Numbered from the stretch's first letter, positions 14,088-32,602 are shown. The stretch: DNA of 64,000 nt from Candidatus Omnitrophota bacterium (GCA_026387175.1 JAPLME010000004.1:447-64446), one strand, 5' to 3'. The notes: a model not told the origin generated them from the sequence alone. Made by a program: numbers and translations.

Positions 14088-14615
14088 ATGAAATCTCTTC
14101 CCGCCAGAAATTATTTTAAAACAGCGATAGCCCTTCTTGTTGTTATCCCAATCGCAGCATATCTGTATATAGCGGTTAAACAGAGCTTCAACAGGCGAAA
14201 TCCTATCGAGCTTTACGAGAGGAAATTGAAAGCCGCTCCCGAAAGCGTGAAGGCCAATAATGACATGGCCGTGGCTTATGAGAAGAAAGGCATGCACGAT
14301 AAAGCGATAAGCGTATATAACCGGATGTTGACTAAAGATTCGAACAATCCCGACCTGTATGTGAACCTCGCCGCCATTCAGATAAAAAAACGAAATCCCG
14401 AATCGGCTATAGCCTTGTGCGAAAAAGCCATAGAGCTGGAACCTGGCAATGCCACCGCTCATAACAATCTCGCCGTAGCTTATTACCTTCAAGGCGATTA
14501 CGAACTCGCTATAGAGCAATGCGATCTCGCCATCAAGTATGGCTACAAGGTAAAGTCCGAACTCCTCAATCTCCTTAAACCATACCGGGAGCAAGAAGAA
14601 ACGAATGAACATTGA
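14088..14615 (+). CDS. TPR-repeat protein with an N-terminal membrane anchor
   Basis: Several 34-aa TPR units (AVAY..KG..DKAI..Y...L repeated). Confidence 0.7.
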   Translation: MKSLPARNYFKTAIALLVVIPIAAYLYIAVKQSFNRRNPIELYERKLKAAPESVKANNDMAVAYEKKGMHDKAISVYNRMLTKDSNNPDLYVNLAAIQIKKRNPESAIALCEKAIELEPGNATAHNNLAVAYYLQGDYELAIEQCDLAIKYGYKVKSELLNLLKPYREQEETNEH

Positions 14616-16311
14616 TAAATTGAACGAGCTGCTCCTTACCGTGCAGAAGCCCGGCAGGTATGTCGGCGGAGAATGGAACGTTGCCAGGAAGGAGTGGACC
14701 GACGATAAGGTAAAGGTGCTGCTGGCGTTCCCCGACGCCTATGAAGTGGGGATGAGCTACCTCGGCATCAAGATACTTTACGGTATCCTGAATAACCGTT
14801 CCGACTGCCTGTGCGAACGTGTCTTCTCGCCATGGATCGATTTTGAGGAGGTCCTCAGAAAAAATCATATAAGCCTCTTCAGCCTGGAATCGCGCAAACC
14901 GATAAAAGAGTTCGATATAATAGGGATAAGCCTGGCCTATGAGTTGTGTTACACGAACGTATTGAATCTACTGGACCTGGGGGGCATCCCTCTGAGGAGC
15001 GCGGAGAGAACCGACTCGGACCCGCTGGTAATCGCCGGCGGACCATCCTGTTATAATCCTGAGCCGATGGCGGAGTTCATCGACGCTTTTTTAATAGGCG
15101 ACGGAGAAGACGCTATAAGCGAGATAGTGGATATATATAAAAAACTGCGCTTATCCGGAAACCGGTCCCGAAAAGATGTCTTGAGGGAGATGGCCAACAT
15201 AAAAGGTGTTTATGTTCCCTTCCTCTACAGAGTTGATTACAACGAAGACGGCACGATTGAAAGTTTTGAACCTTGCGAGAAGGGCATTCCGGAAAAAATT
15301 GAAAAAAGGATAGTCAGGGACCTGGACAAGGCCTTCTATCCCGTAGATCAGATAGTGCCGAATATCGGTATAATACACGACCGCGCCGCTATAGAGATCA
15401 TGAGGGGGTGTAAGCATGCCTGCAAGTTTTGCCAGGCCACGATTGCGTACAGACCGGTGCGGGAGCGTTCGCGAAATACTATTTTAGAACTTGCTAAAAA
15501 GACACACAGCTCGACCGGGTACGATGAAATATCCCTCTTATCGTTATCGAGCGTGGACCATTCCGAACTTCACGATACTATCAGGGATCTCAATAAAGAG
15601 TTTTGCCGTAATGCCGTGTCGCTTTCTATTCCGTCGCTTCGCATAGAGGATTCACTTAAGGATTTACCGGCGCTGATATCGGAAATAAAAAAAACCGGGC
15701 TCACATTCGCGCCGGAGGCAGGAAGCGACAGCCTTAGAAAATCACTTAACAAGAATATAAAGATAGAGAGGCTGTTCGAGGCCGCGTCAGAGTCGTTTAG
15801 AAAAGGCTGGCGCAAAGTCAAGCTGTACTTCATGATAGGGCTTCCGGGCGAGACCGAAGAAGATCTGGCCGGTATAACCGATCTGATGCGCAAGATCTCA
15901 AATCTTAAGAAAGAGATCGACGGCCATCCGGCCCAGATAACGGCGAGCATTAATGCGTTCGTGCCGAAACCTCATACGTTCTTTGAGCGTTCGGCAATGG
16001 CGGATGTTGAGTCGCTGGAGAAGAAGAGAGAGATTCTGCGGAGCGGTTTTCGGTCTAAGCTGATCGACCTGGATTTCCATTCATTCAACAGAAGTTATCT
16101 TGAAGCGATACTGACCAGGGGAGACAGAAGGCTGGCGAATGTCATATATGAGTCCTGGCGCTCAGGCGCGAGATTTGACGGGTGGCAGGAACTTTTTAGA
16201 TTCGAGACCTGGTTATCATCGCTTAAAGAACTTGGAATAGACGGATCGTTTTATGCCTTGAGGGCCAGAAAAGAAAATGAGCTGCTGCCATGGGATTTTA
16301 TCGAAATTTGA
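14605..16311 (+). CDS. B12-binding-domain radical SAM protein of the TIGR03960 type
   Basis: N-terminus LLLTVQKPGRYVGGEWN and KVLLAFPDAYEVGMSYLGIKILYGILN match this uncharacterised radical SAM family. Radical SAM core with a CxxxCxxC-type cluster site CKHACKFC. Confidence 0.8.
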   Translation: MNIDKLNELLLTVQKPGRYVGGEWNVARKEWTDDKVKVLLAFPDAYEVGMSYLGIKILYGILNNRSDCLCERVFSPWIDFEEVLRKNHISLFSLESRKPIKEFDIIGISLAYELCYTNVLNLLDLGGIPLRSAERTDSDPLVIAGGPSCYNPEPMAEFIDAFLIGDGEDAISEIVDIYKKLRLSGNRSRKDVLREMANIKGVYVPFLYRVDYNEDGTIESFEPCEKGIPEKIEKRIVRDLDKAFYPVDQIVPNIGIIHDRAAIEIMRGCKHACKFCQATIAYRPVRERSRNTILELAKKTHSSTGYDEISLLSLSSVDHSELHDTIRDLNKEFCRNAVSLSIPSLRIEDSLKDLPALISEIKKTGLTFAPEAGSDSLRKSLNKNIKIERLFEAASESFRKGWRKVKLYFMIGLPGETEEDLAGITDLMRKISNLKKEIDGHPAQITASINAFVPKPHTFFERSAMADVESLEKKREILRSGFRSKLIDLDFHSFNRSYLEAILTRGDRRLANVIYESWRSGARFDGWQELFRFETWLSSLKELGIDGSFYALRARKENELLPWDFIEI

Positions 16312-16317
16312 CAAAAG

Positions 16318-16346
16318 GATATCCTTATAGTATACTTTGGTCAATA
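16318..16346 (+). promoter_or_regulatory. Consensus sigma70 promoter (-35 ttgaca, 17-nt spacer, -10 tatact) for the GGDEF-domain gene
   Basis: Perfect -35 and near-consensus -10. The same gtatact -10 recurs at other strong promoters in this window. Confidence 0.6.
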
Positions 16347-16391
16347 TAATATATAACGATATTATTGCCAATATACGGGAGGGAGATAACG

Positions 16392-17777
16392 ATGGCCACC
16401 CTTAAGGGGTTGTTTATAAGCAGCAAAGGCTTAAGGCACAAACTTATGGTTGCGTTCAGCCTGATGACCATCATACCTCTTCTGGCCTGTGTATACCTGC
16501 TTTCCCCATATCTGAATCCCGGATTTCAGAACCTTGTAAATCTCGCTGTAATAATCTTAGCGTCGCTGGTCATTTCGATCCTGGGCCTTATCATTGCCGG
16601 AAGCATCATAAACGCTGTCGTCGAACTTTCTGCTGAAACAAAAAAGATATCCGCCGGCGACTACGACAGGCGCATAGACATACCGGGTGACGACGAACTC
16701 GGTAATCTCGGCCAGTCGATTAATATGATGACCAGGAGGATAAAATCCAACCTGGATGAACTGAAGAACTACGGGCAGAGCATGAAAGCGATAAACGCGG
16801 AGATACAGAAGAAAGTGACCGCGCTTTCGAGCTTGTTGCAGATAGATGAAGTGATTTCGGCCGGTTCGCTGCAGATAGATTCGCTTTTGGAGCTTGGGGT
16901 GGGCAAAGCATCCGGTATGTTCGATATGGGTTTCGGCGCTCTGTATATGTCCAGGGAAGAGGACGGGGATTTTATCGCGAAAGTGTGCTATAACGCCGAT
17001 AAGGAGAAGCTTGCGGAGATCGTAATAAGAAGAGGCGGTCATGGCGTCCTGGAGAAAGCTATCGAAAATAAGAAGATGTTCCAGGTCACTGATGGTATGA
17101 AGCTTCCTGATGATCTGGATGATTTTAAGAGAGCGCATAATCTGAAGAATTTTATTGTGATCCCGTTGTATTCCGACAGGATAGCGTTCGGGCTTCTTTT
17201 GCTTGGTAATCGTCTGAGTGATTTCAGCTACACCAGCGATGATATTGAACTAGCTACGGTATTCGCCAAACATATCACGATCGCCATCGAAAGCGACCTG
17301 TTGGAAAAGAAGAACAAAGAGCTTGCCATAATGGACGACCTGACAGGGCTGTATAACAAGCGTTATCTGCTTATACGGCTCGAAGAAGAGATAAAGAGGT
17401 CCATATTTTATCAGAGACCCTGCGCGTTCATAGTCTTCAGGGTGGATAATTTCAGGGCATTCCGCGAAACAAACGGCGAGCTGGCTTCGGAAGAGGCTCT
17501 TAAACGTATAGCCAAGGTCATAAGGGACAATAATATTCCGGTTGGCAGGGCCGCGCGTATAGGGGGAAGTGAGTTTGCTATGCTCCTTCCTGAGAAGAAT
17601 AAAAAAGAGGCCACCCGCATCGCCGAAGATGTACGCAGGAAGATTGAAAACGTCAATGTGCTGAAAGCGGGTAAGGTCAGCCTTGAGGTGAAGATGGGCT
17701 TGAGCGAAAACCCGATAGACGGCGCGACGAGCGAAGAGCTATTTAAAAAAGCTGTGGCTTCATTGGAAAAAGAATGA
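16392..17777 (+). CDS. Membrane HAMP-GAF-GGDEF protein with a degenerate (GGSEF) diguanylate-cyclase motif
   Basis: TM helices, HAMP (DELGNLGQSINMMTRRIK), GAF-like middle region and a GGDEF fold where the signature reads RIGGSEFAMLL. There is no RxxD I-site. The start at 16392 has SD gggaggga; the ORF-track start 16365 is the upstream alternative. Confidence 0.8.
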   Translation: MATLKGLFISSKGLRHKLMVAFSLMTIIPLLACVYLLSPYLNPGFQNLVNLAVIILASLVISILGLIIAGSIINAVVELSAETKKISAGDYDRRIDIPGDDELGNLGQSINMMTRRIKSNLDELKNYGQSMKAINAEIQKKVTALSSLLQIDEVISAGSLQIDSLLELGVGKASGMFDMGFGALYMSREEDGDFIAKVCYNADKEKLAEIVIRRGGHGVLEKAIENKKMFQVTDGMKLPDDLDDFKRAHNLKNFIVIPLYSDRIAFGLLLLGNRLSDFSYTSDDIELATVFAKHITIAIESDLLEKKNKELAIMDDLTGLYNKRYLLIRLEEEIKRSIFYQRPCAFIVFRVDNFRAFRETNGELASEEALKRIAKVIRDNNIPVGRAARIGGSEFAMLLPEKNKKEATRIAEDVRRKIENVNVLKAGKVSLEVKMGLSENPIDGATSEELFKKAVASLEKE

Positions 17778-17789
17778 AAGGAATATTAA

Positions 17790-18854
17790 ATGCCTCATAA
17801 TATGAAAGACCTCTTAAGCCTGATGGTTCAGAAGAGCGCCTCAGATCTTCATATAACCTCCGGGTCTCCGGTCCATTTAAGGGTGGACGAGAACCTTATT
17901 CCCGTGGACCGGAATATTTTGTCCGATAATGATACGAAGGCCCTTGTCTTCAGTATGCTGACCGAAACGCAGATAGAAAAATTTGAGCGGGAGCTGGAGC
18001 TCGATGTGGCGTTCAGCATGGAAGATTTTGGCCGATTCAGGGTTAACGTTTTTAAGCAGAGGGGCTCAGTCGCCTCATCAATAAGGCTCATACCCGGTAA
18101 TTTATGGTCTTTCGAAAAGTGTGGCTTGCCGGCGGATGTGGCGATCGACCTTTGCAACAGGCCCAAAGGCCTTGTGCTGATCACGGGCTCGACGGGAAGC
18201 GGTAAGTCCACAAGCCTTGCCTCGATGATAGACTGGATAAACACTAACCGCTCATGCCATATTGTTACGATCGAGGACCCTGTGGAATTTGTTCATAAGA
18301 ATAAGAAGTCGATAGTCAATCAGCGCGAAGTATACAGCGATACGCACTCTTTCAACGCTTCGCTGAAACATATTTTAAGGCAGGACCCGGACGTTATCCT
18401 GATAGGAGAGATGAGGGACCTGGAGACGATCGAGTCGGCTTTAATAATCGCCGAAACGGGCCACCTGGTTTTCGCGACTCTGCATACGTCAGACTGCGTC
18501 CAGACCATTAACAGGATTGTAGATGTCTTCCCCTCTCATCAGCAGGAACAGACACGTACTCAGCTTTCGTTTGTTCTGGTCGGGGTCCTGTCCCAGCAGC
18601 TTATTCCTAAAGCGGAAGGGCCGGGACGTGTATTGGCTACCGAAATCCTTATGGTGACGCCTCCGGTGCGCAGCATGATAAGGGAATCGAAGGCGCACCA
18701 GCTGTATTCTGTGATACAGACGTCGAAGAAAGAGGGTATGAAGACGATGAACCAGTCTCTCTATGAGCTTTATAGCAAGAAGCTGATCACTTATGAAGAA
18801 GCTTTCGACCGATCCACGGATATCGAGGATCTAGGAAGGCTGTTTAAAAAATAG
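17790..18854 (+). CDS. pilT: Twitching-motility retraction ATPase PilT
   Basis: Walker A GSTGSGKST, Asp box, His box, ~350 aa with no N-terminal extension. Classic PilT. Confidence 0.92.
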   Translation: MPHNMKDLLSLMVQKSASDLHITSGSPVHLRVDENLIPVDRNILSDNDTKALVFSMLTETQIEKFERELELDVAFSMEDFGRFRVNVFKQRGSVASSIRLIPGNLWSFEKCGLPADVAIDLCNRPKGLVLITGSTGSGKSTSLASMIDWINTNRSCHIVTIEDPVEFVHKNKKSIVNQREVYSDTHSFNASLKHILRQDPDVILIGEMRDLETIESALIIAETGHLVFATLHTSDCVQTINRIVDVFPSHQQEQTRTQLSFVLVGVLSQQLIPKAEGPGRVLATEILMVTPPVRSMIRESKAHQLYSVIQTSKKEGMKTMNQSLYELYSKKLITYEEAFDRSTDIEDLGRLFKK

Positions 18855-18870
18855 AAATATAAGAAAGCCA

Positions 18871-19320
18871 ATGTCCAACGCTAAGAGAGTCGTATCTAAA
18901 CAATTGGGCGAGCTTTTGCTGGAGCGGGGCGTGATCAGCGAAGAACAGCTGAATAAAGCCCTGAAGGCCCAGGAGATTAACGGAGGCCTGATAGGTTATA
19001 TCCTTGTTTCGCTGGGTTACGCAAAAGAAGAGGAGATAGCTCAGGCGCTTACCGTGCAGTATGGTTTTCCGTATTTACCGCTTGAGTATTATGAGATAAA
19101 TACTGAGGCGATGAAGCTGATACCGCGGAACGTCGCCGAACAATACAATCTTATTGCGATAGATAAGATGGGCAACCTGTTGACTATAGCTATGTCGAAC
19201 CCCCTGAATGCTCAGGCGGTAGAGGATATTGAAATGATATCGAATTGCACGGTGCAGGTATTCGTGAGCACGATGTCCGACGTAACTAACGCGATAACCA
19301 AATACTACCAGAAAAAATAA
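18871..19320 (+). CDS. Stand-alone T2SS-E N-terminal (MshEN-like) domain protein, a putative c-di-GMP receptor
   Basis: KQLGELLLERGVISEEQLNKALKAQ fits the 24-residue MshEN motif RLGxxLxxxGxIxxxQLxxALxxQ. The rest is the GspII_E_N fold. There is no ATPase domain. Confidence 0.75.
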   Translation: MSNAKRVVSKQLGELLLERGVISEEQLNKALKAQEINGGLIGYILVSLGYAKEEEIAQALTVQYGFPYLPLEYYEINTEAMKLIPRNVAEQYNLIAIDKMGNLLTIAMSNPLNAQAVEDIEMISNCTVQVFVSTMSDVTNAITKYYQKK

Positions 19321-19328
19321 TCCTTTAA

Positions 19329-21062
19329 ATGACGCCCGGACTAAAAGAGAAACTTACAAAGATCCTGATAGATAAGAACCTCATAAAAGAGGATGACCTT
19401 CAGAAGGCCCTCGCGCTGCAGAAGGAAAAGGGCGGATCTTTAAGCGACGTGCTGATAGCCCTCAAGCTGATATCGAAGAATGACCTGATGATGGTAATCA
19501 GCGAGCATCTGGGTATCCCGCCCATAAATCTGAGCCGTTTTAAGATAGATCCCGCAGTTCTTAAACTTGTTTCCAGAAAAACCGCAAAGCATTATAAGAT
19601 AATGCCGATCGCTAAGATGGGTAATGTGCTGACGCTTGCTATAGCGGACCCTCTTAATATATTTGCCATCGATGATATAAAAGCCCTTACAGGGTTTAAG
19701 ATAGCCCCTATAGTTACTACCGAAAACGATATAAATTACGCTATAGGCCACTATTATGAGGAAGATACCTATGCCGCTATAGACAAGATAGTCACCGGTA
19801 TAAAAGGCGCTGATGGGGACGTGAAATTCATGGATGGCGCCGGCTCAGACGTCGGTGTGGAAGACATGACGGAGATCGCGCAGGAAGTTCCTGTAGTGAA
19901 GATAACGAATATGCTTGTCGCCGAGGGTCTAAAGATGCGCGCCAGCGATATACTTATCGAGCCGATGGAAAGAGAGCTGCGTGTCAGGTACAGGGTCGAC
20001 GGCATTTTGCAGGAGGGGCGAAGGCCCCCGAAGGTATTGCATAGCTCTATCGTGTCCAGGCTAAAGATTATATCGGATCTTGATATCGCGGAGCACCGCT
20101 TGCCCCAAGACGGCAGGTTTAAGATTAAGGTGTCCGGAAGGGAGGTCGACTTCAGGATATCGATCCTGCCATCGCGTATGGGAGAGAAGGTCGCGATCAG
20201 GATACTGGATAAGGCTCAGGCTACACTTGATATAAATAAACTTGGGATCGACCCGATATCCCTCGACAAGATAAAGAAATCAGCCGAGAGGCCGCATGGC
20301 ATGATACTCGTCTGTGGTCCGACGGGATGCGGAAAAACCACAACCCTCTATTCGATACTGCAGCTTATAAATTATCCGACGGACAACATAGTGACTGTCG
20401 AGGACCCGGTAGAGTATCTCATAGAAGGCATAAGCCAGGTGACCGCGCGGCCTGAAATAGGCCTCACCTTCGCCGCCGCGCTTCGTTCGATATTGAGACA
20501 GGACCCCGACTCAATAATGATAGGCGAAATACGTGATTTCGAAACCGTAGACATAGCTATAAAAGCGGCCCTTACGGGGCACCTCGTCTTAAGCACGCTG
20601 CATACGACGACGGCAACGGGCTCAATCATAAGGCTTGTCAATATGGGCCTTGAACCGTTCCTGATAGCGTCATCCCTGATAATGGTGGCCGCGCAGCGGC
20701 TTGTCCGAAAGATATGCCCCGGCTGCAAAGAGTCTTACGATCTCGATAAGGATATTGCCAGAAAAATCAACCTGGCGCCGGCATCCGGTAAAATTACTCT
20801 GTATCGGGGCAAGGGATGCCCTGACTGTCTGGGGACGGGATACAAGGGCCGGACCGCGTTGATAGAGGTCCTTATGCTTACTCCGAAGATAAAAGAGCTG
20901 GTCCTGGCAGGCGAGCAGGAGCATATTATAAGGGAAGCGGCAAGGCGCGAGGGCATGAAGACGCTTCGCGAAAATGGAATACAGAACGTGCTCGACGGTA
21001 TAACTACCCTCGACGAGGTAGTGCGCGTTACTGTCGGCGATCAGGACATGGATACGGTATAA
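19329..21062 (+). CDS. pilB: Type IV pilus assembly ATPase PilB (copy 1) with an N-terminal MshEN-like domain
   Basis: N-terminal LTKILIDKNLIKEDDLQKALALQ motif, Walker A GPTGCGKTTT, tetracysteine CPGC...CPDC zinc motif, GspE-family boxes. Confidence 0.9.
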   Translation: MTPGLKEKLTKILIDKNLIKEDDLQKALALQKEKGGSLSDVLIALKLISKNDLMMVISEHLGIPPINLSRFKIDPAVLKLVSRKTAKHYKIMPIAKMGNVLTLAIADPLNIFAIDDIKALTGFKIAPIVTTENDINYAIGHYYEEDTYAAIDKIVTGIKGADGDVKFMDGAGSDVGVEDMTEIAQEVPVVKITNMLVAEGLKMRASDILIEPMERELRVRYRVDGILQEGRRPPKVLHSSIVSRLKIISDLDIAEHRLPQDGRFKIKVSGREVDFRISILPSRMGEKVAIRILDKAQATLDINKLGIDPISLDKIKKSAERPHGMILVCGPTGCGKTTTLYSILQLINYPTDNIVTVEDPVEYLIEGISQVTARPEIGLTFAAALRSILRQDPDSIMIGEIRDFETVDIAIKAALTGHLVLSTLHTTTATGSIIRLVNMGLEPFLIASSLIMVAAQRLVRKICPGCKESYDLDKDIARKINLAPASGKITLYRGKGCPDCLGTGYKGRTALIEVLMLTPKIKELVLAGEQEHIIREAARREGMKTLRENGIQNVLDGITTLDEVVRVTVGDQDMDTV

Positions 21063-21063
21063 A

Positions 21064-22800
21064 ATGAAAACAGCGGACCCGCTTAAAGAAAAACTGATAG
21101 ATATTTTGATAAACGGCAAACTCATAACCCAGGAGCAGCTGGCTACCGCGCTCGATGTGCAGAGGAATATAGGCGGATCTCTCGGGAAGATCCTCGTCTG
21201 GCAGGGTTATGTCTCTCAGAAAGATATCGTGATAGCGATGAGCCAGCAACTAAACATTCCGCCGATAAATCTGTCTAAATATCAGATAGACAAGACGTTG
21301 ATAGATATTATCCCTGAACGGATAGTAAAGCAGTACTTGATAATGCCGATATCCAAGATCGGCAATGTGCTCACCGTCGCTATGGTGGATCCGCTTAATA
21401 TATTTGCCATCGATGACATAAAGACGCTGACCAATTATCGGATCCAGCCGATACTGGCCACTGAGAATGATATAAAAGAGGCTATAGGCACCTACTATAG
21501 CAGCGCGGCCATTGAGGACATCTCTGATATGCTCGATCAGGCTGAGGCCTCGGATGTCTCGGAGGTGGAAAAAGCAGAAGGGGAAGAGGAGATAAATGTA
21601 AGCGAGGTGGCTGAAGAATCGAAGAAGGCGCCGATAGTTAAAATAGTCAATCTGATATTGAATGAAGCGATGAAGAAGCGTTCGAGCGATATCCATATCG
21701 AACCGCGCGAAAAAAACTTGATGGTGCGCTATAGAATTGACGGTAATCTGGAAGATGCTCTTACTCTCCCTAAGAAAAATCAGAATGCGGTCATTGCGAG
21801 ATTAAAGATCATATCCGGCCTGGACATCACCGAGACCAGAATTCCGCAGGACGGGCGGTTTAAAGTAAACTTCGAAGGAAGAGAGATAGATTTCAGAGTG
21901 TCGATCCTGCCGGTGGCGTTTGGCGGCAAGATAGTTTTACGCGCGCTTGACAAGTCGAACCTGAGCATAGGCCTGGATGAACTCGGATTTTTACCGGGCC
22001 CTTTAAGCACTTTTAAGGCCGCTCTCGCGAGGCCTTACGGACTGATCCTTGTGACCGGTCCTACGGGCAGCGGAAAGTCCACGACATTATACTCAATCAT
22101 AAATCAGATTAACACGCCGGACAAGAACATAATTACCCTGGAAGATCCGGTAGAATACGAGGTCGACGGTATTACGCAGATTCAGGCCAGACCCGACATA
22201 GGATTGACCTTCGCCACGGGGCTAAAGTCCGTCTTAAGGCAGAGCCCTGATATTGTGATGGTCGGAGAGATAAGGGATTTTGAGACTGCGGATATTTCCA
22301 TCAAGGCATCGCTGACCGGCCAGCTTATATTAAGTACTCTTCATACCAATGACGCAGCGGGCGCGATAACGAGGCTTATAGACATGGGAGTGGAACCATT
22401 TCTTGTGGCATCCAGTCTCGTCCTCTCTTCGGCGCAAAGGCTCATGAGAAAAATCTGTCCGTTCTGTACGGAGGAGGTAGATATACCGAAAAACATTCTG
22501 GAAAAAGCGGGGATAAGCCTTGATGAGATATCTAAAAAAGGCGTTAAACATTTTCATCAAGGTAAGGGTTGCCAGAGATGCAATAATACCGGATATCACG
22601 GCAGGTTCGGTATCCTTGAGGCGCTTTTGATCGATGATAATGTGCGGGATATGATAATGAAGAAGACCTCGAGCGGCGATATAAAAGATTATGCCATAAA
22701 AGAACAGCATATGCTGACATTGAGAGATAACGCGGTAGAGAATTTTATTAACGGGACCACTGCGCTTGAGGAGGTTTTAAGGGTGACCTCGGAGGACTAG
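21064..22800 (+). CDS. Second PilB/GspE-family assembly ATPase (tandem paralog) with an MshEN-like N-domain
   Basis: KEKLIDILINGKLITQEQLATALDVQ N-motif, Walker A GPTGSGKSTT, CPFC...CQRC tetracysteine motif. About 45 percent identical to copy 1 by eye. It has an acidic linker (EASDVSEVEKAEGEEE) that copy 1 lacks. Confidence 0.88.
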   Translation: MKTADPLKEKLIDILINGKLITQEQLATALDVQRNIGGSLGKILVWQGYVSQKDIVIAMSQQLNIPPINLSKYQIDKTLIDIIPERIVKQYLIMPISKIGNVLTVAMVDPLNIFAIDDIKTLTNYRIQPILATENDIKEAIGTYYSSAAIEDISDMLDQAEASDVSEVEKAEGEEEINVSEVAEESKKAPIVKIVNLILNEAMKKRSSDIHIEPREKNLMVRYRIDGNLEDALTLPKKNQNAVIARLKIISGLDITETRIPQDGRFKVNFEGREIDFRVSILPVAFGGKIVLRALDKSNLSIGLDELGFLPGPLSTFKAALARPYGLILVTGPTGSGKSTTLYSIINQINTPDKNIITLEDPVEYEVDGITQIQARPDIGLTFATGLKSVLRQSPDIVMVGEIRDFETADISIKASLTGQLILSTLHTNDAAGAITRLIDMGVEPFLVASSLVLSSAQRLMRKICPFCTEEVDIPKNILEKAGISLDEISKKGVKHFHQGKGCQRCNNTGYHGRFGILEALLIDDNVRDMIMKKTSSGDIKDYAIKEQHMLTLRDNAVENFINGTTALEEVLRVTSED

Positions 22801-22823
22801 AGCGAAAGCTTGAAAGGGACGAT

Positions 22824-24041
22824 ATGCCGAATTTTAAATATGTTGCCAAGGACCGCGCCGGCAAGGCTTTGAGCGCAAGTCTGGATGCCAAGGACCGCGC
22901 GGCGGCCGTGGATGTCCTGAGAAAAAAGGATCTCATTATCATATCGGTGATTGAAGAGACGCCGAAAACCGGCATATCGCTTGCCATGTTCGGAGGGGCG
23001 AAGAAGATCAAGCTGGATGATATCGCCATGTTCGCCAGGCAGCTGGCCACGATGGTCGACGCGGGAATTACGCTGGTAGCCGCTCTCGATATACTGGGAG
23101 AACAGATGGACAATAAGGCATTCGGCGCGATAATATTGACCGTTCGTAATGATGTTGAGACGGGTTCGAGCCTTTCGGCGGCGCTGGCCAAACACAAAAA
23201 GGTATTTTCGCCTTTATTCGTTAATATGGTAAGGGCGGGTGAGTCCAGCGGTATGCTTGACGACATACTGGACCGGCTGTCTCAATATCTCGAAAAGACC
23301 AGCAGCCTTCAGAAGAAAGTACAGTCCGCTATGATCTATCCGGCCATTGTAAGCAGTATGGCGATAGGGATAACCCTCATATTACTCTTGAAAGTAGTGC
23401 CGATATTCAAAGATATATTTTCCGGCTTCGGCGCCAAACTTCCTACGCCCACACTCATCCTGATAACTATCAGCAATACCCTGCAAAAATATTTTTTAAT
23501 GGTTGTGTTATGCGTTGCCGGCATGGTTTTTCTGCTGCGCAAATATCTGAACACCGAAAAAGGCAGGGTAAAATTTGACGGATTCGTGCTGAATGTGCCA
23601 ATATTCGGGACCCTTCTCACAAAAGTCGCGATAAGTAAATTTTCCAGGACGCTCTCGACTCTCGTAAAATCAGGGGTTCCGATATTATCCGCGCTGGAGA
23701 TAGTAGGCAAAACAGCCGGCAATAAAGTGGTCGAAAATGCTGTAGATGAAGTGAGGAAGAATGTCAGGGAAGGCGAGGGTATAGCGGCTCCTCTGGCTAA
23801 GTCCAAAATATTTCCGACTATGATGACTAGAATGGTTTCAGTGGGCGAACAATCCGGAGAGCTGGAGAAGATGCTTTCAAAGATAGCCGATTTCTATGAT
23901 GATCAGGTAAGTATAGCCGTAAGCGGGTTAACCAGCATGATAGAGCCGCTTATAATAGCATTCCTGGGCATAGTCATAGGATCCGTTGTTATAGCCATGT
24001 TCCTTCCGATCTTTAAACTTACCACAGTTGTAAGCATGTAA
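22824..24041 (+). CDS. pilC: Type IV pilus platform protein PilC (GspF family)
   Basis: Two GspF repeats and three TM segments. Conserved position after pilB. Confidence 0.9.
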   Translation: MPNFKYVAKDRAGKALSASLDAKDRAAAVDVLRKKDLIIISVIEETPKTGISLAMFGGAKKIKLDDIAMFARQLATMVDAGITLVAALDILGEQMDNKAFGAIILTVRNDVETGSSLSAALAKHKKVFSPLFVNMVRAGESSGMLDDILDRLSQYLEKTSSLQKKVQSAMIYPAIVSSMAIGITLILLLKVVPIFKDIFSGFGAKLPTPTLILITISNTLQKYFLMVVLCVAGMVFLLRKYLNTEKGRVKFDGFVLNVPIFGTLLTKVAISKFSRTLSTLVKSGVPILSALEIVGKTAGNKVVENAVDEVRKNVREGEGIAAPLAKSKIFPTMMTRMVSVGEQSGELEKMLSKIADFYDDQVSIAVSGLTSMIEPLIIAFLGIVIGSVVIAMFLPIFKLTTVVSM

Positions 24042-24106
24042 ATCACCCCAGAAAGCCGCTCTCATTCCTGCGGAGATAGACAGTAAGATTTATTGCTTTC
24101 GCGCTC

Positions 24107-24135
24107 TTGACAACGGGTAATTCATAACGTATACT
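24107..24135 (+). promoter_or_regulatory. Consensus sigma70 promoter (-35 ttgaca, 17 nt, -10 tatact) for the major pilin gene
   Basis: tcttgacaacgg...gtatact. The identical 12-mer tcttgacaacgg recurs at 24631 ahead of the mini-pilin/pilM operon. Confidence 0.6.
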
Positions 24136-24188
24136 TTTATTGAAGGTCTGGAATATGCCCAATTCTGGGAGAAAGCGGGGTGATTTAT

Positions 24189-24530
24189 ATGATGACAAAG
24201 ATGAACAAGAAAGGCTTTACGCTTGTTGAAATAATGATTGTTGTCGCAATTATAGGTCTATTAGCTGCGATAGCCATTCCAAACTTCATCAAAGCGAGGG
24301 AGACTGCGCAGAGAAACGCGTGTATCGCTAACCTGAAACAGATTCAGGGAGCGGCTCAGGTATGGGCCATAGATACCGGCGCGGCGTCAGACGCTACAGC
24401 TACATCGGCGGCTCTGGTGCCTAATTATCTGAAGGGGTGGCCGAAGTGCGGTACGAATTCTTATGCAGAAACGACCGTGAGCGGCACTCCAACGTGTCCG
24501 ACCACAGGCAGTGTTGGCCACACTATATAG
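24189..24530 (+). CDS. pilA: Type IVa major pilin (PilA-like prepilin)
   Basis: Class III signal: short basic leader ending KKG, then FTLVEIMIVVAIIGLLAAIAIPNF (Gly-1, Phe+1, Glu+5). C-terminal Cys pair WPKCG...TPTCP forms a disulfide loop. The ORF-track start 24180 is GTG; an ATG at 24189 or 24201 is likelier. Confidence 0.88.
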   Translation: MMTKMNKKGFTLVEIMIVVAIIGLLAAIAIPNFIKARETAQRNACIANLKQIQGAAQVWAIDTGAASDATATSAALVPNYLKGWPKCGTNSYAETTVSGTPTCPTTGSVGHTI

Positions 24531-24573
24531 CCGACAGGTTCATAAGTGTTGATTAATGTAAACCTAGGATCAG

Positions 24574-24607
24574 CCCCGCGTCCAAATTAATGGGCGCGGG
24601 GTTTTTC
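24574..24607 (+). terminator. Rho-independent terminator after pilA
   Basis: ccccgcg/cgcgggg stem with a 14-nt loop followed by ttttt. Confidence 0.75.
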
Positions 24608-24668
24608 TATACATTTTGTCCATGCCATTATCTTGACAACGGTTTTTTTATATGATAATCTGACTATA

Positions 24669-24809
24669 ATGAATCTAAAAAATAACGCTGGTCTGACATT
24701 AGTTGAAAATCTAGTAGCGATACTTTTGGTAAGCACCCTATTGATAGGCATAATGGGTGCTTTTTTTGTTTCAAGTTACGCATCTCCCGCGATAGGCATG
24801 GAGAGGTGA
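24669..24809 (+). CDS. 46-aa mini-pilin (prepilin leader plus N-terminal alpha-1 helix only). It is absent from the ORF track because it is shorter than 60 aa.
   Basis: MNLKNNAG|LTLVENLVAILLVSTLLIGIMGAFFV has a class III cleavage/methylation motif (G, then L-T-L-V-E with Glu+5). The stop overlaps the pilM start. Preceded by the tcttgacaacgg promoter box. Confidence 0.5.
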   Translation: MNLKNNAGLTLVENLVAILLVSTLLIGIMGAFFVSSYASPAIGMER

Positions 24810-25852
24810 TGGCCGGATTTAACCTGCAATTAAAGCGTCCCGGAAAAATCAGGAGCATCACCGCGCTCGATATCGGCAGCCACTCGATAAAGATGATCGA
24901 GATTTCCGTTGGAGCGGAAAGGCCGTCTCTTGTCTCATTCGGTATAAAAAAGATACAGGGGCTTTCGAGCGGATCGGTAGCGGACGCCGTGAGAACGCTA
25001 TCTGAAGATCTTAAGATAGCGGGGAGAGACCTTAATATATCTCTTGCCGGATCGTCCATAGTGGCCCGTGTCATATCGATGCCGGATATGGGGGATGAGG
25101 ACCTGAAGAACGCCATCAGGTTTGAGACGGAAAAGTTTATCCCGTTCGATATCAATGAATGCACGCTCGATTTTCATATTCAGGGAAAGAGCGCGAGAGA
25201 AAAGAATAATTTAGACATACTTCTGGCGGCCGCCAAAAAAGACTATGTTCTCGCGAAGATAAAGATCGTGGAGGATGCGGGTTTCAGCGTCAATGTGGTC
25301 GATGTGGACAGTTTTGCCCTCACAAACGCGTTTCTTAAGAATTTCACCTCCATAGAGCCGGCTAAAACCATAGCTCTTATCAATGTGGGGGCTGTATATA
25401 CGAATCTTGTAATATTGAGGGGAGGAGTCATATCGTTCGTCAGGGATCTGGCGATAGGCGTGAATGACTTTTGCCAGACGATTTCTAAAAAGTGCGGCGT
25501 CAACCTGGAACTCTCCGACTGGTCTAAAGGCGTTTCGGCCGAGAAATCGGCCGAAGTCGCTCTTTCGGCGAAGTCCGCTCTCGCAGGTCTTGTAGATGAG
25601 ATAAAACTCTCTTTCGGATATCATGAAAACCAGAGCGGCAGAGGCATAGATGAGATACATATATCCGGCGGAGGCGCGGGTTTTATCGGACTGGAAGAGG
25701 CATTTAACGACACTTTCGGGTCCAAGCCGGCGCGGTGGAACCCTTTTCAGTTTCTAAATATAGATCCCTCCATAGTCAACGCTGATGAAATAGCCGGGAC
25801 AAACGGCTCTTTTGCCGTTTGCGCCGGACTTGCGCTGAGAGGAGGCCTATGA
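24806..25852 (+). CDS. pilM: Type IV pilus assembly protein PilM (actin-like ATPase fold)
   Basis: ALDIGSHSIKMIE N-terminus and FtsA/actin-like fold. Conserved pilMNOPQ order. Confidence 0.9.
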   Translation: MMAGFNLQLKRPGKIRSITALDIGSHSIKMIEISVGAERPSLVSFGIKKIQGLSSGSVADAVRTLSEDLKIAGRDLNISLAGSSIVARVISMPDMGDEDLKNAIRFETEKFIPFDINECTLDFHIQGKSAREKNNLDILLAAAKKDYVLAKIKIVEDAGFSVNVVDVDSFALTNAFLKNFTSIEPAKTIALINVGAVYTNLVILRGGVISFVRDLAIGVNDFCQTISKKCGVNLELSDWSKGVSAEKSAEVALSAKSALAGLVDEIKLSFGYHENQSGRGIDEIHISGGGAGFIGLEEAFNDTFGSKPARWNPFQFLNIDPSIVNADEIAGTNGSFAVCAGLALRGGL

Positions 25853-26472
25853 TAGAGATAAATCTGCTTCCGCAGGAACTCAGGAAGAAACCTCCGATTT
25901 TTTCCGGGCTGGATTTTAAAGGAATCGATATAAAGAGCATCCCGATACTCAAGATAGCCGCCGGCATAGGCGCTGGGCTAGTCCTGATGCAACTGGCGGT
26001 TTTTCTGTTCGGGATAATTTCAAGCATTGAGCTTGCTTCGACTACCAAAAAATACAACGCGATATTGCCGGAAAAGAGAGAGGCGGACATATTGAAGGCG
26101 AAAGTAGCCGATATCAATAAGAGATCCGGCGCTATCGACGAGCTGATGGTGAAGCGGTTTAGCTGGGCCAGGAAGATCAATCTCTTAAGCGATTGCATGA
26201 CCCCCGGGATATGGCTCTCGGAGCTTTACTATGATGAACGTCCGGTTCCAGGCCAGGCCAAGACGGCTATGCCCGGAGCGCTTGTGATGAGCGGATACGC
26301 TTCCGGAGTTGGCGAGCAGGGAGCCGCCCTTATAGGAAAATTTATAAAAAGTCTGCAGGATAATAAAGATTTCTATTCAGATGTCGCCAGCGTGGAACTG
26401 GTCTCCACGAAGAGCGACAAAGTGGACAAGCAGGACGTGATGAGTTTCAGGATAAACTGTTTATTTAAATAG
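25849..26472 (+). CDS. pilN: Type IV pilus assembly protein PilN
   Basis: MIEINLLPQELRKK canonical PilN N-terminus, single TM, coiled coil. ATGA overlap with pilM. The ORF-track start 25819 is probably too long. Confidence 0.85.
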   Translation: MIEINLLPQELRKKPPIFSGLDFKGIDIKSIPILKIAAGIGAGLVLMQLAVFLFGIISSIELASTTKKYNAILPEKREADILKAKVADINKRSGAIDELMVKRFSWARKINLLSDCMTPGIWLSELYYDERPVPGQAKTAMPGALVMSGYASGVGEQGAALIGKFIKSLQDNKDFYSDVASVELVSTKSDKVDKQDVMSFRINCLFK

Positions 26473-26478
26473 GTTAAG

Positions 26479-27078
26479 ATGCGGACGATATTGAACAACA
26501 TAATCGCTATTTTCACGAACCTTAAGAAGAGCCCGAAGCAGATGATAATTGTGATATCCGCGGGCTGCGCCTTTGCGCTCTTATTGTATTTTAATTTTTT
26601 GCTGAAACCTCAGGTTATCAACATATCCGGCATTAGAAGCAATCTCGGTAAAGTCAGCGCGGATCTGAGGGCCGCAAAATCTGATATCGCCAAAATCAAC
26701 AGCATGAGAAGCGCGGTCGAAGCATACAACAAGAAGCTGGACAAATATGAGAAGACGCTTCCCACGGAAGAGGGCATACCTGACCTGTTGGAAAGCCTTT
26801 CCGAGATGGCGAAGAGCTCTAATATGCGCATAGCCGGCATAGTGCCGGTCGATCAACAAAAAGGGGCCGGGTCCGGAAATCGTGTTTACAAAGAGATACC
26901 TATAATGATAACCGCCAAGGCCGGATATCATGGGGTGGGACGGTTTCTTTCCAGCCTGGAGAATTCCGACCGGTTTATGAAGGTGGTCGATATGCAGATA
27001 AAAGCCGATCCGGCTTCGCCGAAGAAGCACGATGTGGAACTGCTGGTGGTTACATATGTTTTGCTGGGGGGCCGATGA
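26479..27078 (+). CDS. pilO: Type IV pilus assembly protein PilO
   Basis: Single TM then coiled coil. Position between pilN and pilP. Confidence 0.8.
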   Translation: MRTILNNIIAIFTNLKKSPKQMIIVISAGCAFALLLYFNFLLKPQVINISGIRSNLGKVSADLRAAKSDIAKINSMRSAVEAYNKKLDKYEKTLPTEEGIPDLLESLSEMAKSSNMRIAGIVPVDQQKGAGSGNRVYKEIPIMITAKAGYHGVGRFLSSLENSDRFMKVVDMQIKADPASPKKHDVELLVVTYVLLGGR

Positions 27079-27464
27079 AATTCCATTTCGGGAAACAGGC
27101 GCACCTTATCTTTTTTTCGCTGGCAGCTATGGTTATTTTTATATTGCCCTGCGCCGGTGACGACTATAAATATGATTCTCACGGTAAGCGCGACCCTTTC
27201 GTGCCCCTGGTGAGCATAGACAGGCCCGCGGTGTCGAGATTAGAGGATGTGACATCGGTCGCGGATGTGAAACTGGAAGGCGTGGCCAGCACCCCTCGGG
27301 GAAAAATAGCCGCGATATTGAACGGTGAGATCGTGAAGGAAGGCGACAAGTTCGGGGATATAGAAATCAAAAAAATCACAAAAAAGACCGTCACGATAAT
27401 AATGGGCGGTAAAAATTATAATATCGATTTAGCCGAAGAGGGGGGAACAAAGAGTGGGTTATAA
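27075..27464 (+). CDS. pilP: Type IV pilus assembly lipoprotein PilP
   Basis: Lipobox LPCAG, small beta domain, overlaps pilO and pilQ. Confidence 0.75.
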   Translation: MKFHFGKQAHLIFFSLAAMVIFILPCAGDDYKYDSHGKRDPFVPLVSIDRPAVSRLEDVTSVADVKLEGVASTPRGKIAAILNGEIVKEGDKFGDIEIKKITKKTVTIIMGGKNYNIDLAEEGGTKSGL

Positions 27465-29148
27465 AAGAGCCGCAAGGCTATCAAGAAAGCTCCTGATCAT
27501 GGTATTGGTGATTATATTTATCGCACCGCCTTTAGCTCTTATCCAGGCGTTTGCCGAAGAAGGGAAAGCGGAGACGCTTCCTGAGAAGCCTGCGTCTGCG
27601 GTCAGCGTCCCGGCAGAGAAAGCTCAGGATGTTTCCGCGCAACCTGTTGCTAAATCCGGAGTGGCCCCGGCCCTGCCAGAGCCGCCGGCGCAGGAAGAAG
27701 CTAAGCCTGTGGAGGTCCTTCCGGTCGAGCCCGGCAACGTCACTGTCAATTTTAAGGGCGCTGAGATAAAAACGGTCCTGGCCTATATATCGGAAGTGGC
27801 AGGCGTCGATATAGTGTCGGCTCCCGATGTTAAAGGTATTATAGATCTTAGGCTGACCAATAAGCCATGGAAGGCGGCGCTCGATATCATCGTAAGAAAT
27901 TATGGATTCGCTTACGAGAGGGAAGGTGACATCATAAGGGTCGTGACGCTTGATAAGTTGAAACAGGAAGAGCTTACGACCCAGGCTTTTAGCCTTAACT
28001 ACTCAAAATCGAAGGAAGTCGTCGCGGCGCTAAAGAATATAGTAGGTGAGAGGGGCAATATAGTGTTTGACGATAGGACCAATACTGTTATAGTCACGGA
28101 TATCCCCACTAACATATACAGGATAGGCCAGATAATCGGAAGGCTCGATAAGAGGACGGAGCAGGTTCTTATAGAGGCGAGGATAATAGAGACGGTGCTG
28201 GGTAATGACGAGAAGCTGGGGATAGACTGGACCGCAAAGATGACAGTCAGCGGCGCTAGTCGTCCGACTACAATGCCGTTCAATTTCTTTAATAACGATG
28301 ACTGGAAATTTTTAGATAAAATGATCCCTTGGGACCAGACAAATGCACCAACGGTTATCGCATTACCGGGTACGCAAGGTACACAGACTGTAACGCCTGC
28401 GAATTTCCCTGTATCTAATGCTGGTATCAATGTGAAATCATTTCCTCTTGCGCTCGCTGACAGTTTCAGTTTTGGGACGCTAGATTTCAGCCAGTTTAAA
28501 GCGGTATTGGAGTTATTGAAATCGCGGGCCGACACAGATACCATATCAAATCCGCGCATAGCCACTCTTAATAATAATAAAGCTACTATAAATGTTGGCG
28601 AAATTATCTACATTCCTAAGTTTGAAAGAAACTCCACAACCGGAAAGATGGAGATCACCGGATATGACCAGACAAATTCCGGCATTGTGCTGGATGTCAC
28701 TCCTCATATTAACGATGTCGGCGAGATAGCGCTGGATCTGGTTCCCCAGATAAAAGAATACCTGGGGACTTCGCCCATAGCTCCGGGCAGTGATATATTC
28801 GCGCCATTATTCAGGACCAGAGAAGCAAAGACGCAGGTGATGGTGAAAAACAGCCAGACAATATTTATCGGCGGCCTGATAAGCGAGAAAGAAGTTGATA
28901 AGCGCACTAAGCTGCCGTTCATCGGGGACATGCTTGGCGATGTTCCGTATCTGGGGCTCCTGGTCTCCCATAAAGACATAGTTAAGCAGAGGGTGGAGTT
29001 GATATTTTTCATCACAGTTAATATAATGTCTCCCGGAACTGCGATAGAAGGTGCGCCGTTAGCCAGTAAAGCGTATGTGCCCGTATTTACCGATACCCAG
29101 CGTGGTAACACAGCCGCCGATAAGAAGAGATTGAAAAAAACATATTAA
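27454..29148 (+). CDS. pilQ: Type IV pilus secretin PilQ
   Basis: Signal peptide, N0/N1 domains (VNFKGAEIKTVLAYISEVAGVDIV), C-terminal secretin domain with GGLISEKEVDKRTKLPFIGDMLGDVPYLG. GTG start in the ORF track. Confidence 0.9.
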   Translation: MGYKRAARLSRKLLIMVLVIIFIAPPLALIQAFAEEGKAETLPEKPASAVSVPAEKAQDVSAQPVAKSGVAPALPEPPAQEEAKPVEVLPVEPGNVTVNFKGAEIKTVLAYISEVAGVDIVSAPDVKGIIDLRLTNKPWKAALDIIVRNYGFAYEREGDIIRVVTLDKLKQEELTTQAFSLNYSKSKEVVAALKNIVGERGNIVFDDRTNTVIVTDIPTNIYRIGQIIGRLDKRTEQVLIEARIIETVLGNDEKLGIDWTAKMTVSGASRPTTMPFNFFNNDDWKFLDKMIPWDQTNAPTVIALPGTQGTQTVTPANFPVSNAGINVKSFPLALADSFSFGTLDFSQFKAVLELLKSRADTDTISNPRIATLNNNKATINVGEIIYIPKFERNSTTGKMEITGYDQTNSGIVLDVTPHINDVGEIALDLVPQIKEYLGTSPIAPGSDIFAPLFRTREAKTQVMVKNSQTIFIGGLISEKEVDKRTKLPFIGDMLGDVPYLGLLVSHKDIVKQRVELIFFITVNIMSPGTAIEGAPLASKAYVPVFTDTQRGNTAADKKRLKKTY

Positions 29149-29200
29149 TCCCGAAAACGTAAATTATAAGTTAAGAGCGGTATTTTCCAAGACCGGCGAT

Positions 29201-29473
29201 ATGCGTTTCATATCGCACCTGGATCTTATGAGGCTTTTCCATAGGGCATTGCGCAGGGCAGGCCTGCCGGCTGTCATAACCAAAGGATTCAGTCCTCATA
29301 TAAAAATGAGCGTAATGAAGGCTCTGAAGCTGGGCGTGGAGAGCGCCTCCGAAGAGGCCGTATTTTACATGACCGAGAAGCTCCCGCCTCAGAGTTTTGT
29401 GGATGCAATTAACGCTAAATTACCCGACGGAGTAAAAGTAGTGAGCGCTAGAGGAGATGACTTGAATGCATAA
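29201..29473 (+). CDS. DUF2344 (TIGR03936-like) radical-SAM-associated protein, N-terminal ~90 aa only
   Basis: MRFISHLDLMRLFHRALRRAGLP...GFSPHIKMS...LGVES matches the start of the DUF2344 family that normally partners the TIGR03960 radical SAM gene. Full-length members are roughly twice this size. Confidence 0.6.
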   Translation: MRFISHLDLMRLFHRALRRAGLPAVITKGFSPHIKMSVMKALKLGVESASEEAVFYMTEKLPPQSFVDAINAKLPDGVKVVSARGDDLNA

Positions 29474-30980
29474 AGAGATATTTATAAATGTTACTCAACA
29501 CGAAAAAAGGATAGCTGTCCTTGAGAATAAGCGTATCGAAGAGTTTTACACGGAGCGTCTCGACGATGTGAACCTCGTAGGAAATATTTATAAGGGCAGG
29601 GTCGAATCCGTATTGCCGGGTATGGGCGCGGCATTTGTCGACATCGGTTTAGAGAAGAACGGTTTTCTGTATGTAACGGATGTAGTGCCCGGCATGGGGA
29701 GCTATGAGAAGCTTCTGGAAGAGGGCGTGGGAGAGGAAGACGTTAAGAAGGCCGAGAGACAGAAGAAACTTCCGCCGATAAACCAGCTGTTGAAAAAAGG
29801 CGACGAGGTGCTTACCCAGATAGTGAAGGAACCCATAAGCACAAAAGGCGCGCGCCTGACGACCCATATAAGCATACCGGGCAGGTTCCTGGTCCTTATG
29901 CCATTCGACAACCATATAGGCCTTTCGAAGCGGATCGAATCGCGGGAAGAGCGCGACAGGATAAGGGCCATCATCGAAAATTTGAAGCTGCCTAAGGATC
30001 TCGGTTTCATCGTGAGGACAGCCGCGCAAGGGGCGAGCGATAAAGATTTCTTCAGGGAGTCCAGGTATCTTATCAATCTCTGGAACAATATAAAGTCTAA
30101 GACAAGAAAGGCGAAAGCTCCCGCCCTCATACATCCCGAATATGACCTGATATTGAGAGTTGCCAGGGACATATTTACAAGCGATGTGGGCAGGCTGGAG
30201 GTGGATTCAAAAGACGATTTCAGAAGGATCTCGCGCTTTTTAAATATACTGGCGCCTCACTTAAAGTCCAGGTTGAAGCTTTATCAGGACAAGGAGCCTA
30301 TATTCGAGAAGTTCGAGATAGAGAAACAGATCGAGAAGATATACGATAGGATCGTGCAATTAAAGAGCGGCGGCTATCTCATATTCGAGCAGACGGAGAG
30401 CCTTGTCGCGATAGATGTTAACTCGGGTAAATTCATCGGCAGGAAGAACCTGGAAGACACGGCATTCAAGACCAATATAGAGGCTGCGGAGGAGGTGCCA
30501 CGGCAGTTGAAGCTGAGGGACCTCGGAGGCATAATAATAATCGATTTCATAGATATGGATTATGCCGACCACAGAAAGTCAGTATTCAAGACGCTTGAAA
30601 GGCGCCTTGAGGATGATAAGGCCAAGACGAATATTCTGAACATTTCAAGCATAGGGCTTGTTGAGATGACGCGCCAGAGGGTGCGCGAGTCGATCGAGTC
30701 GAAGAGCTATCAGAAATGCCCGTATTGCAACGGCCGCGGCATCGTGAAGTCGATATCGACTATATCTATCGAGCTCATCAGGAAACTCGAGTATGTGCTG
30801 CAGAATACAAGGTCGAGGGAGCTGTTCGTTTCGATGCATCCGGAAGTGGCATATTATGTCTCAAGCCCTGAAAAAAATATGGTAAAATCACTAGAAAGGC
30901 GCTTCAGGAAGAGTATAAGGATAATAGAAGACCCCAATATCCATATCGAAGAGATAAAGATAGAGCAACGGAACGCTTGA
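29466..30980 (+). CDS. rng: Ribonuclease G/E family endoribonuclease
   Basis: S1 domain NIYKGRVESVLPGMGAAFVDIG, DNase I-like and Zn-link CPYCNGRG motifs. About 500 aa, so RNase G-like rather than Rne. Confidence 0.9.
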   Translation: MHKEIFINVTQHEKRIAVLENKRIEEFYTERLDDVNLVGNIYKGRVESVLPGMGAAFVDIGLEKNGFLYVTDVVPGMGSYEKLLEEGVGEEDVKKAERQKKLPPINQLLKKGDEVLTQIVKEPISTKGARLTTHISIPGRFLVLMPFDNHIGLSKRIESREERDRIRAIIENLKLPKDLGFIVRTAAQGASDKDFFRESRYLINLWNNIKSKTRKAKAPALIHPEYDLILRVARDIFTSDVGRLEVDSKDDFRRISRFLNILAPHLKSRLKLYQDKEPIFEKFEIEKQIEKIYDRIVQLKSGGYLIFEQTESLVAIDVNSGKFIGRKNLEDTAFKTNIEAAEEVPRQLKLRDLGGIIIIDFIDMDYADHRKSVFKTLERRLEDDKAKTNILNISSIGLVEMTRQRVRESIESKSYQKCPYCNGRGIVKSISTISIELIRKLEYVLQNTRSRELFVSMHPEVAYYVSSPEKNMVKSLERRFRKSIRIIEDPNIHIEEIKIEQRNA

Positions 30981-32598: not shown

Positions 32599-32602
32599 GA
32601 CG

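Follow-up and report, generated by a model that had tools for sequence, protein, structure and literature searches.

Radical S-adenosylmethionine (rSAM) proteins of the B12-binding TIGR03960 family and proteins of the DUF2344 family (TIGR03936; PF10105) are both widespread and functionally uncharacterised, and our literature searches found no published functional work on DUF2344, TIGR03960 or TIGR03936. DUF2344 has been placed within the pseudouridine synthase domain of its analysed Pfam clan, a domain formed by the tandem duplication of two moieties that have little sequence similarity to one another (PMC7955657). A TIGR03960 gene is expected to be fused to, or to lie directly before, its TIGR03936/DUF2344 partner, and the state from which the locus described here would have started is a housekeeping block of other lineages, in which rSAM, DUF2344, rng, rplU, rpmA and obg follow one another. 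We have analysed a stretch of 64,000 nt (hereafter 'the window') from a Candidatus Omnitrophota metagenome-assembled genome (MAG; GCA_026387175.1, JAPLME010000004.1:447-64446), in which the DUF2344 gene is found instead approximately 12.8 kb downstream of the rSAM gene on the same strand (16311 to 29144), beyond a type IVa pilus locus, and encodes only half of the family profile. Very probably, a broad Omnitrophota clade has this as its normal chromosomal layout, which the window genome has inherited; both the DUF2344 and the rSAM proteins have been slimmed in this lineage, and the short protein is probably functional.

An earlier note on this DNA had placed the rSAM gene at 14605-16311 and DUF2344 with rng at 29201-30980, the pilus locus lying in between, and profile searches located all of these where it had put them; the separation of the pair likewise stands, at slightly less than the 12.9 kb then given, now that the DUF2344 gene is measured from 29144. 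That note took the arrangement for an insertion or rearrangement which had split a conserved gene pair and might have truncated one member.

Extent and conservation of the short DUF2344 gene

The open reading frame (ORF) beginning at the ATG at 29201 (29201-29473) matches positions 12-95 of the 176 in PF10105 (E 1.7e-30). Eleven in-frame codons ahead of this ATG (NYKLRAVFSKTGD) align with positions 1-11 of PF10105 and likewise of TIGR03936; adding them raises the PF10105 score from 106.7 to 122.6 bits (cut-off 23.8). The extended protein corresponds to positions 1-95 of 176 in PF10105 and 1-95 of 209 in TIGR03936 (129.5 bits, cut-off 71.9), agreeing with the previous description of this copy as the N-terminal half of the family; coverage of both moieties of either model was not found. 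No ATG, GTG or TTG is present in the DUF2344 frame between the upstream stop codon and 29201, and the corresponding NCBI product (MCX5677761.1, 109 aa, beginning MNPENVNYKL) starts from the ATT at 29144, which has one base in common with the TAA stop codon of pilQ (29146-29148). Six related loci retain an ATT here, with the adjacent codons being variable; loci having the ATT include L009, L010, L011, L012 and L015. In six other species (loci L020, L025, L028, L033, L035 and L036), an ATA is found 14 codons before the FISHLD motif, at the exact site of ATG or TTG codons elsewhere, with GGA/GAG-rich sequence ahead of it. Hence the gene most likely starts at the ATT at 29144 and encodes 109 aa with a complete N-terminus, rather than the 90 aa once proposed. 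The pattern of start codons suggests that initiation at these near-cognate codons may be helped by translational coupling, through which the short gene would be expressed: its start overlaps the pilQ stop codon, and its own stop codon overlaps the start of rng, by 8 nt in the window. A frameshift fusion of DUF2344 and rng was also considered, and was rejected because the overlaps differ between genomes, ranging from -23 to over +100 nt.

Searching with the short protein gave over 1,100 homologues, the best 120 of which are all 87-120 aa in length, with the named ones coming from Omnitrophota. An alignment (A1) of 20 homologues, having 58-100% identity to the window protein, contains no internal gaps, a common end point and 30 invariant columns; the residues invariant across the wider family (K, S-H-L-D, R, R, G-F-x-P, G and E) are all present in the window protein, and are invariant in this alignment. 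Scanning species-representative genomes identified 80 loci, nearly all labelled as Omnitrophota, and in all 80 the distance from FISHLD to the stop codon is 79-94 codons. Pairwise ratios of non-synonymous to synonymous substitution (dN/dS) over 90 codons were between 0.05 and 0.25 (0.147 for the window and L011); as these values indicate purifying selection, the short gene is not a decaying fragment, but a conserved, selected gene of around 100 aa. The Omnitrophota-type locus is also carried by several MAGs bearing the labels Planctomycetia, Dehalococcoidia, Patescibacteria or Deltaproteobacteria (L024, L028, L030, L033, L055, L064 and others), which probably reflects coarse or wrong taxonomy.

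These data bear directly on whether a recent insertion or rearrangement in the window genome separated rSAM from DUF2344 and left behind a truncated, decaying remnant. Such an event would be consistent with the contiguity of the pair in other lineages, with an ORF spanning only half of the family profile and with the lack of a canonical start codon ahead of the conserved first strand. It is nevertheless very improbable, given that the identical arrangement and gene length recur in dozens of species-level genomes, that the related loci do not come from near-identical strains (47-80% identity), that the dN/dS values are low, and that base composition is uniform (GC 0.46-0.52) and GC skew unchanged across the region. 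As the DUF2344 protein is about 100 aa long throughout the relatives, it can no longer be regarded as a truncated remnant. Furthermore, the part that is missing lies on the far side of the gene from the pilus junction: the 5' end, at the junction itself, is intact, whilst the 3' half, next to rng, is absent, so the insertion cannot directly have caused the shortening. No C-terminal remnants were found either; the earlier note had proposed looking for them in other frames of 29474-29520, where the C-terminal profile described below detected nothing in any of the six frames, and where there is no room for them.

Gene order in relatives and in other lineages

According to tblastn searches with the window proteins, most of the 80 loci have the order pilM-N-O-P-Q, short DUF2344, rng, L21, (L27), obg, proB and proA; where the upstream sequence is long enough to tell (64 loci), pilQ is no more than 4 kb upstream of the short gene in 59. 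In 76 of 77 loci, the short DUF2344 gene is followed immediately by rng, at gaps mostly between -23 and +10 nt, and the same layout is evident in the Pfam-labelled gene tables of L001-L005. The other flank was studied around five rSAM homologues with 63-76% identity (L006, L007, L008, L170 and L171), in all of which the rSAM gene is followed by genes for a HAMP-GAF-GGDEF protein, PilT, an MshEN-only protein, two PilB proteins, PilC and pilins. The genes upstream of rSAM are less constant, with mreBCD-PBP2-RodA replacing ruvCAB-queH-spoIID-TPR in two of the five relatives. Since the rSAM-pilus order is retained despite this change, rSAM is linked more tightly to the pilus locus than to its upstream neighbours.

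Full-length DUF2344 genes were examined for comparison. A HMMER search with the short form of representatives clustered at 50% identity gave 8,392 matches, and each of the 150 best matches it in one single stretch. These 150 include many stand-alone proteins of approximately 200-310 aa, matched at their N-terminal part, and three fusions of approximately 850-880 aa, matched near residues 610-765. The full-length protein with the greatest similarity to the short form amongst them comes from a locus (L089) at which rSAM, DUF2344 (213 aa), rng, L21, L27 and obg are contiguous; a word-based homologue search from this closest full-length protein (P0245) gave only seven proteins. Of the 81 metagenome loci having a full-length DUF2344 gene, 27 have rSAM directly upstream and rng directly downstream, often then followed by L21-L27-obg. 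The contiguity of rSAM, DUF2344 and rng in other genomes, as the earlier note stated it, is thereby corroborated.

The split of the pair is thus real but old: its two genes are separated here and adjacent elsewhere, as had been claimed, yet the relatives share both the pilus-containing arrangement and the short form, so that the organisation is ancestral to a broad Omnitrophota clade and not the product of an event in the window genome. Under the scenario we favour, a complete type IVa pilus locus and a cyclic di-GMP (c-di-GMP) module would have been placed between rSAM and DUF2344 in an early Omnitrophota ancestor, the inserted set consisting of the HAMP-GAF-GGDEF gene, pilT, the MshEN-only gene, two pilB genes, pilC, pilins and pilMNOPQ, and the arrangement would have been inherited since. 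That the window derives from a MAG raises the question of a chimeric contig produced during assembly or binning; as both junctions recur in independent JGI, ENA, NCBI and Logan assemblies, this is almost certainly not the case. A recent foreign origin of the pilus locus was likewise rejected, on the basis of its uniform composition.

Recruitment might instead account for the persistence of rSAM and the short DUF2344 gene on the two flanks of the pilus locus, their products having been co-opted by the pilus system, for instance to modify or regulate pilins or other pilus proteins. The position of rSAM directly upstream of the GGDEF-pilT set, even where its own upstream neighbours change, is in keeping with this, as is the overlap of the short gene's ATT start with the pilQ stop codon. 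A compact variant in L077 (6407-11805), which keeps only rSAM, a secretin gene, a 94 aa ORF with no family match, the short DUF2344 gene and rng, also fits. In that locus, a PilZ gene is found two genes upstream of rSAM. However, the short gene is tied to rng in the 76 of 77 loci mentioned above, including five without pilQ in the 4 kb upstream, and the flanking order from rSAM through to DUF2344-rng-L21-L27-obg is that of other lineages plus an insert; we therefore regard recruitment as quite improbable.

Fold of the short protein and the pieces missing from both partners

An AlphaFold2 model of the short protein, calculated from A1, consists of a single beta-alpha-beta-beta-alpha-beta unit (pLDDT 83, pTM 0.74). 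In the PDB, this model is best matched by TruA from E. coli and from Thermus, and by Pus1 and Pus3 from human (TMq 0.58-0.66), about half of each chain being matched at a sequence identity of only 10-18%; a PDB search by sequence gave no significant match. The model of full-length P0245 (pLDDT 92) matches whole pseudouridine synthase catalytic domains, with nearly all of its 33 structure matches at E <= 1e-3 being pseudouridine synthases. According to these models, then, the short protein is the N-terminal moiety of a pseudouridine-synthase-like two-moiety fold, of which the complete form is found only in full-length relatives. Comparison of the N and C halves with hhalign detected no sequence similarity between them (probability 4.7%), and the idea of an internal duplication accordingly comes from the fold and from the published clan analysis (PMC7955657).

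The half that has been lost contributes little to the conserved features of the family. R218 alone, among the invariant or near-invariant positions, can be placed clearly in the C-terminal half, which is poorly conserved even within full-length members. A hidden Markov model (HMM) of this half, built from 85 full-length representatives, gave no match at E <= 10 in the six frames of the window or in 88 loci (approximately 1 Mb of Omnitrophota loci); as a control, it detected 22 held-out long members, including all three fusions. This null result, together with the concentration of nearly all family-invariant residues in the retained half, makes it rather improbable that the gene has been split, with the C-terminal moiety encoded elsewhere, or diverged past recognition, and acting in trans with the short protein. 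In favour of a split gene are the formation of one fold by the two moieties in the full-length model, the weak conservation of the C half in full-length members and the limited sensitivity of the HMM.

The rSAM protein is also shorter than its counterparts. It is identical to the NCBI protein MCX5677747.1 from a Candidatus Omnitrophota MAG (contig of 71,465 bp), contains the CxxxCxxC cluster motif as CKHACKFC at residue 269, and matches positions 2-564 of the 605 in TIGR03960, leaving the C-terminal tail (565-605) unmatched. Amongst the metagenome loci, all 19 rSAM proteins adjoining a full-length DUF2344 run 41-55 aa past the end of the window protein, whereas the Omnitrophota rSAM proteins extend only 0-25 aa past it (n=120). 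Omnitrophota rSAM proteins hence lack a C-terminal tail of around 45 aa found in other lineages. The parallel absence of this tail and of the second DUF2344 moiety, which may represent co-loss, suggests an interaction between them in other bacteria. Taken with the location of nearly all conserved residues in the N-terminal moiety, a phylum without either piece suggests in turn that the lost pieces cooperate, and are dispensable for the core activity.

As to what this activity may be, the fold link to pseudouridine synthases and the fixed coupling to rng-rplU-rpmA-obg point to RNA or ribosome substrates, and TIGR03960 and TIGR03936 presumably have an RNA-related role, the grounds for which are fold similarity and gene neighbourhood. 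The short product would keep this role linked to rSAM and RNase G, perhaps as a homodimer, or with the second moiety being dispensable. By eye, the DUF2344 motif N-A-x-L-P-x-G-[IV]-x-[IV] resembles the TruA sequence N-A-N-L-P-G-D-I-A-V. The family has, again by eye, no Asp in the loop that carries the catalytic one in TruA; it is therefore probably not a pseudouridine synthase, and the short protein has not been filed as one. We think it unlikely that the short protein is a natural single-moiety, pseudouridine-synthase-like homodimer working with a tail-less TIGR03960 partner, or that the pair has come to serve the pilus locus it brackets. If the former were true, it would be a living model of the pre-duplication state of an ancient RNA-enzyme fold.

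Several observations weigh against an inherited organisation containing a functional short protein with this fold. In five of the 64 loci, unrelated genes occupy the upstream position and the pilus genes are absent, yet the pairing of short DUF2344 with rng is kept. How deep the arrangement reaches within the phylum was estimated from sequence identities (47-80% for DUF2344 and 63-100% for rSAM) rather than from a species tree. Roughly a quarter of the long members set aside as a control escaped detection by the C-half HMM, and the search with it covered 64 kb plus flanking loci. Finally, the loop TKGFSPHIK, equivalent by eye to the catalytic-Asp loop of TruA, contains no Asp.

The pilus block and comparison with known systems

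Candidate ORFs were labelled by Pfam and NCBIfam profile searches (see table). Every large ORF from approximately 7.3 kb to 56 kb of the window is on the plus strand, and GC content (0.43-0.54) and the positive GC skew are both even over the region of interest. Between rSAM and DUF2344 lies a complete type IVa pilus set, with domain matches for two PilB proteins, PilT, PilC, a pilin, PilM, PilO and PilQ, and with PilN and PilP assigned by position only. The whole of the pilT-pilB-pilB-pilC-pilA-pilMNOPQ locus is therefore within the interval, as previously listed; absent from that list was the MshEN-only gene between pilT and the first pilB, an orthologue of which, 149-150 aa long, is present in all five relatives. 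Its product may serve the pilus motor as a c-di-GMP receptor in its own right. The GGDEF gene had been called degenerate, correctly so, as its signature reads GGSEF rather than GG[DE]EF; the orthologues have GGDEF in L006 and L007, DGAEF in L008 and GVDEF in L170 and L171, and no RxxD I-site is found ahead of the signature in the window. Some species may use the HAMP-GAF-GGDEF protein as a cyclase, and others as a sensor or receptor.

Table. Features of the window from the rSAM gene to proA, with the profile matches or other grounds for their labels; bit scores are given against curated cut-offs where stated.
Feature	Coordinates	Strand	Evidence
TIGR03960-family B12-binding rSAM protein, 568 aa	14605..16311	+	TIGR03960, 731 bits (cut-off 462.3); PF19864 (Radical_SAM_N2), E 8.5e-65; PF04055 (Radical_SAM), E 1.4e-18
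HAMP-GAF-GGDEF membrane protein, signature GGSEF	16365..17777	+	Pfam and sequence
PilT-type retraction ATPase, 354 aa	17790..18854	+	T2SSE, E 2.7e-45, without an MshEN domain; position conserved in five relatives
Stand-alone MshEN domain protein, 149 aa	18871..19320	+	PF05157, E 2.2e-17; NF053729 c-di-GMP motif, 61.6 bits (cut-off 38)
PilB-type assembly ATPase, paralogue 1	19329..21062	+	MshEN and T2SSE
PilB-type assembly ATPase, paralogue 2	21064..22800	+	MshEN and T2SSE
PilC platform protein	22824..24041	+	T2SSF, domain in two copies, E 5.3e-68
Type IV pilin with N-methylation motif	24180..24530	+	PF07963, E 2.2e-9
Terminator-like hairpin directly 3' of the pilin gene	24572..24603	+	13-pair stem, 9 G-C pairs, then a T run; consensus match only
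PilM	24806..25852	+	PilM_2, E 1.6e-46
PilN-position gene	25819..26472	+	No Pfam match; named by position; homologue in the same place in most related loci
PilO	26479..27078	+	PF04350, E 4e-18
PilP-position gene	27075..27464	+	Sub-threshold T2SSB match only; named by position, which is conserved
PilQ secretin	27454..29148	+	Secretin, Secretin_N and STN domains
Half-length TIGR03936/DUF2344 protein	29144..29473	+	PF10105, 122.6 bits; TIGR03936, 129.5 bits; NCBI MCX5677761.1; first ATG at 29201
RNase G/E-family ribonuclease (rng)	29466..30980	+	TIGR00757 (Rne/Rng), 511 bits (cut-off 326)
rplU (L21), rpmA (L27), obg, proB, proA	31056..34935	+	Pfam; order common to most related loci

The terminator-like hairpin interrupts an otherwise tightly packed string of co-oriented genes, and promoter-like matches to 11 of 12 consensus positions occur at 16308-16336, 24107-24135 and 28999-29027. 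In L170 (18270-20784), pilC is split by a DDE_Tnp_1 transposase gene on the opposite strand into T2SSF pieces of 137 aa and 271 aa. The rng product falls below the NF008689 equivalog level for RNase G (482.7 bits, cut-off 594). Just 5' of rSAM is a TPR gene (14088-14615) of variable length, encoding 175 aa in the window, 146 aa in L008 and 533 aa in L006 (8361-9962). It is preceded by a SpoIID-domain gene (12916-14082), found in relatives at a conserved position between queH and the TPR gene; the Omnitrophota are not known to form spores.

Omnitrophota cells are very small and possibly host-associated, and the compact grouping of pilus and c-di-GMP genes throughout the phylum is in keeping with pili having a central role in them; our searches found no published work on Omnitrophota pili that addresses this locus. 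The arrangement is a conserved, lineage-specific variant of modest interest, which no paper that we found describes, although its proteins are already annotated by family at NCBI. For annotation, the short DUF2344 gene should be treated neither as a pseudogene nor as a fragment, and the pilus locus should not be taken for a recent mobile insertion.

When set against type IVa pilus gene sets having MshE-type ATPases, the block has every core part, by domain or by position, and the MshEN c-di-GMP motif. It differs in forming a single contiguous, co-oriented block with two pilB paralogues, in adding a separate 149 aa MshEN-only protein and an often degenerate GGDEF protein, and in being nested inside a string of housekeeping genes. 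Compared with the rSAM-DUF2344-rng-rplU-rpmA-obg neighbourhood of other lineages, both sides carry the same genes, unchanged in order and strand, but around 12.8 kb of c-di-GMP and pilus genes separate rSAM from DUF2344, and both of these genes are shorter, the former lacking its tail and the latter its C-terminal half.

At the level of the protein, the short form resembles full-length TIGR03936/PF10105 members (commonly around 200-310 aa, or fused to TIGR03960) in that its N-terminal 95 residues align end to end, its scores exceed the curated cut-offs and its gene is directly upstream of rng; it differs in being without the entire C-terminal moiety of approximately 110-130 residues, in its distance from the rSAM partner and, in the window genome, in its ATT start. 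Relative to TruA, Pus1 and Pus3, it superposes on one moiety only, whereas a full-length relative superposes on the whole catalytic domain, and the stretch corresponding to the catalytic-Asp loop of TruA reads, by eye, GF(S/N)P(H/R)xK, with no Asp.

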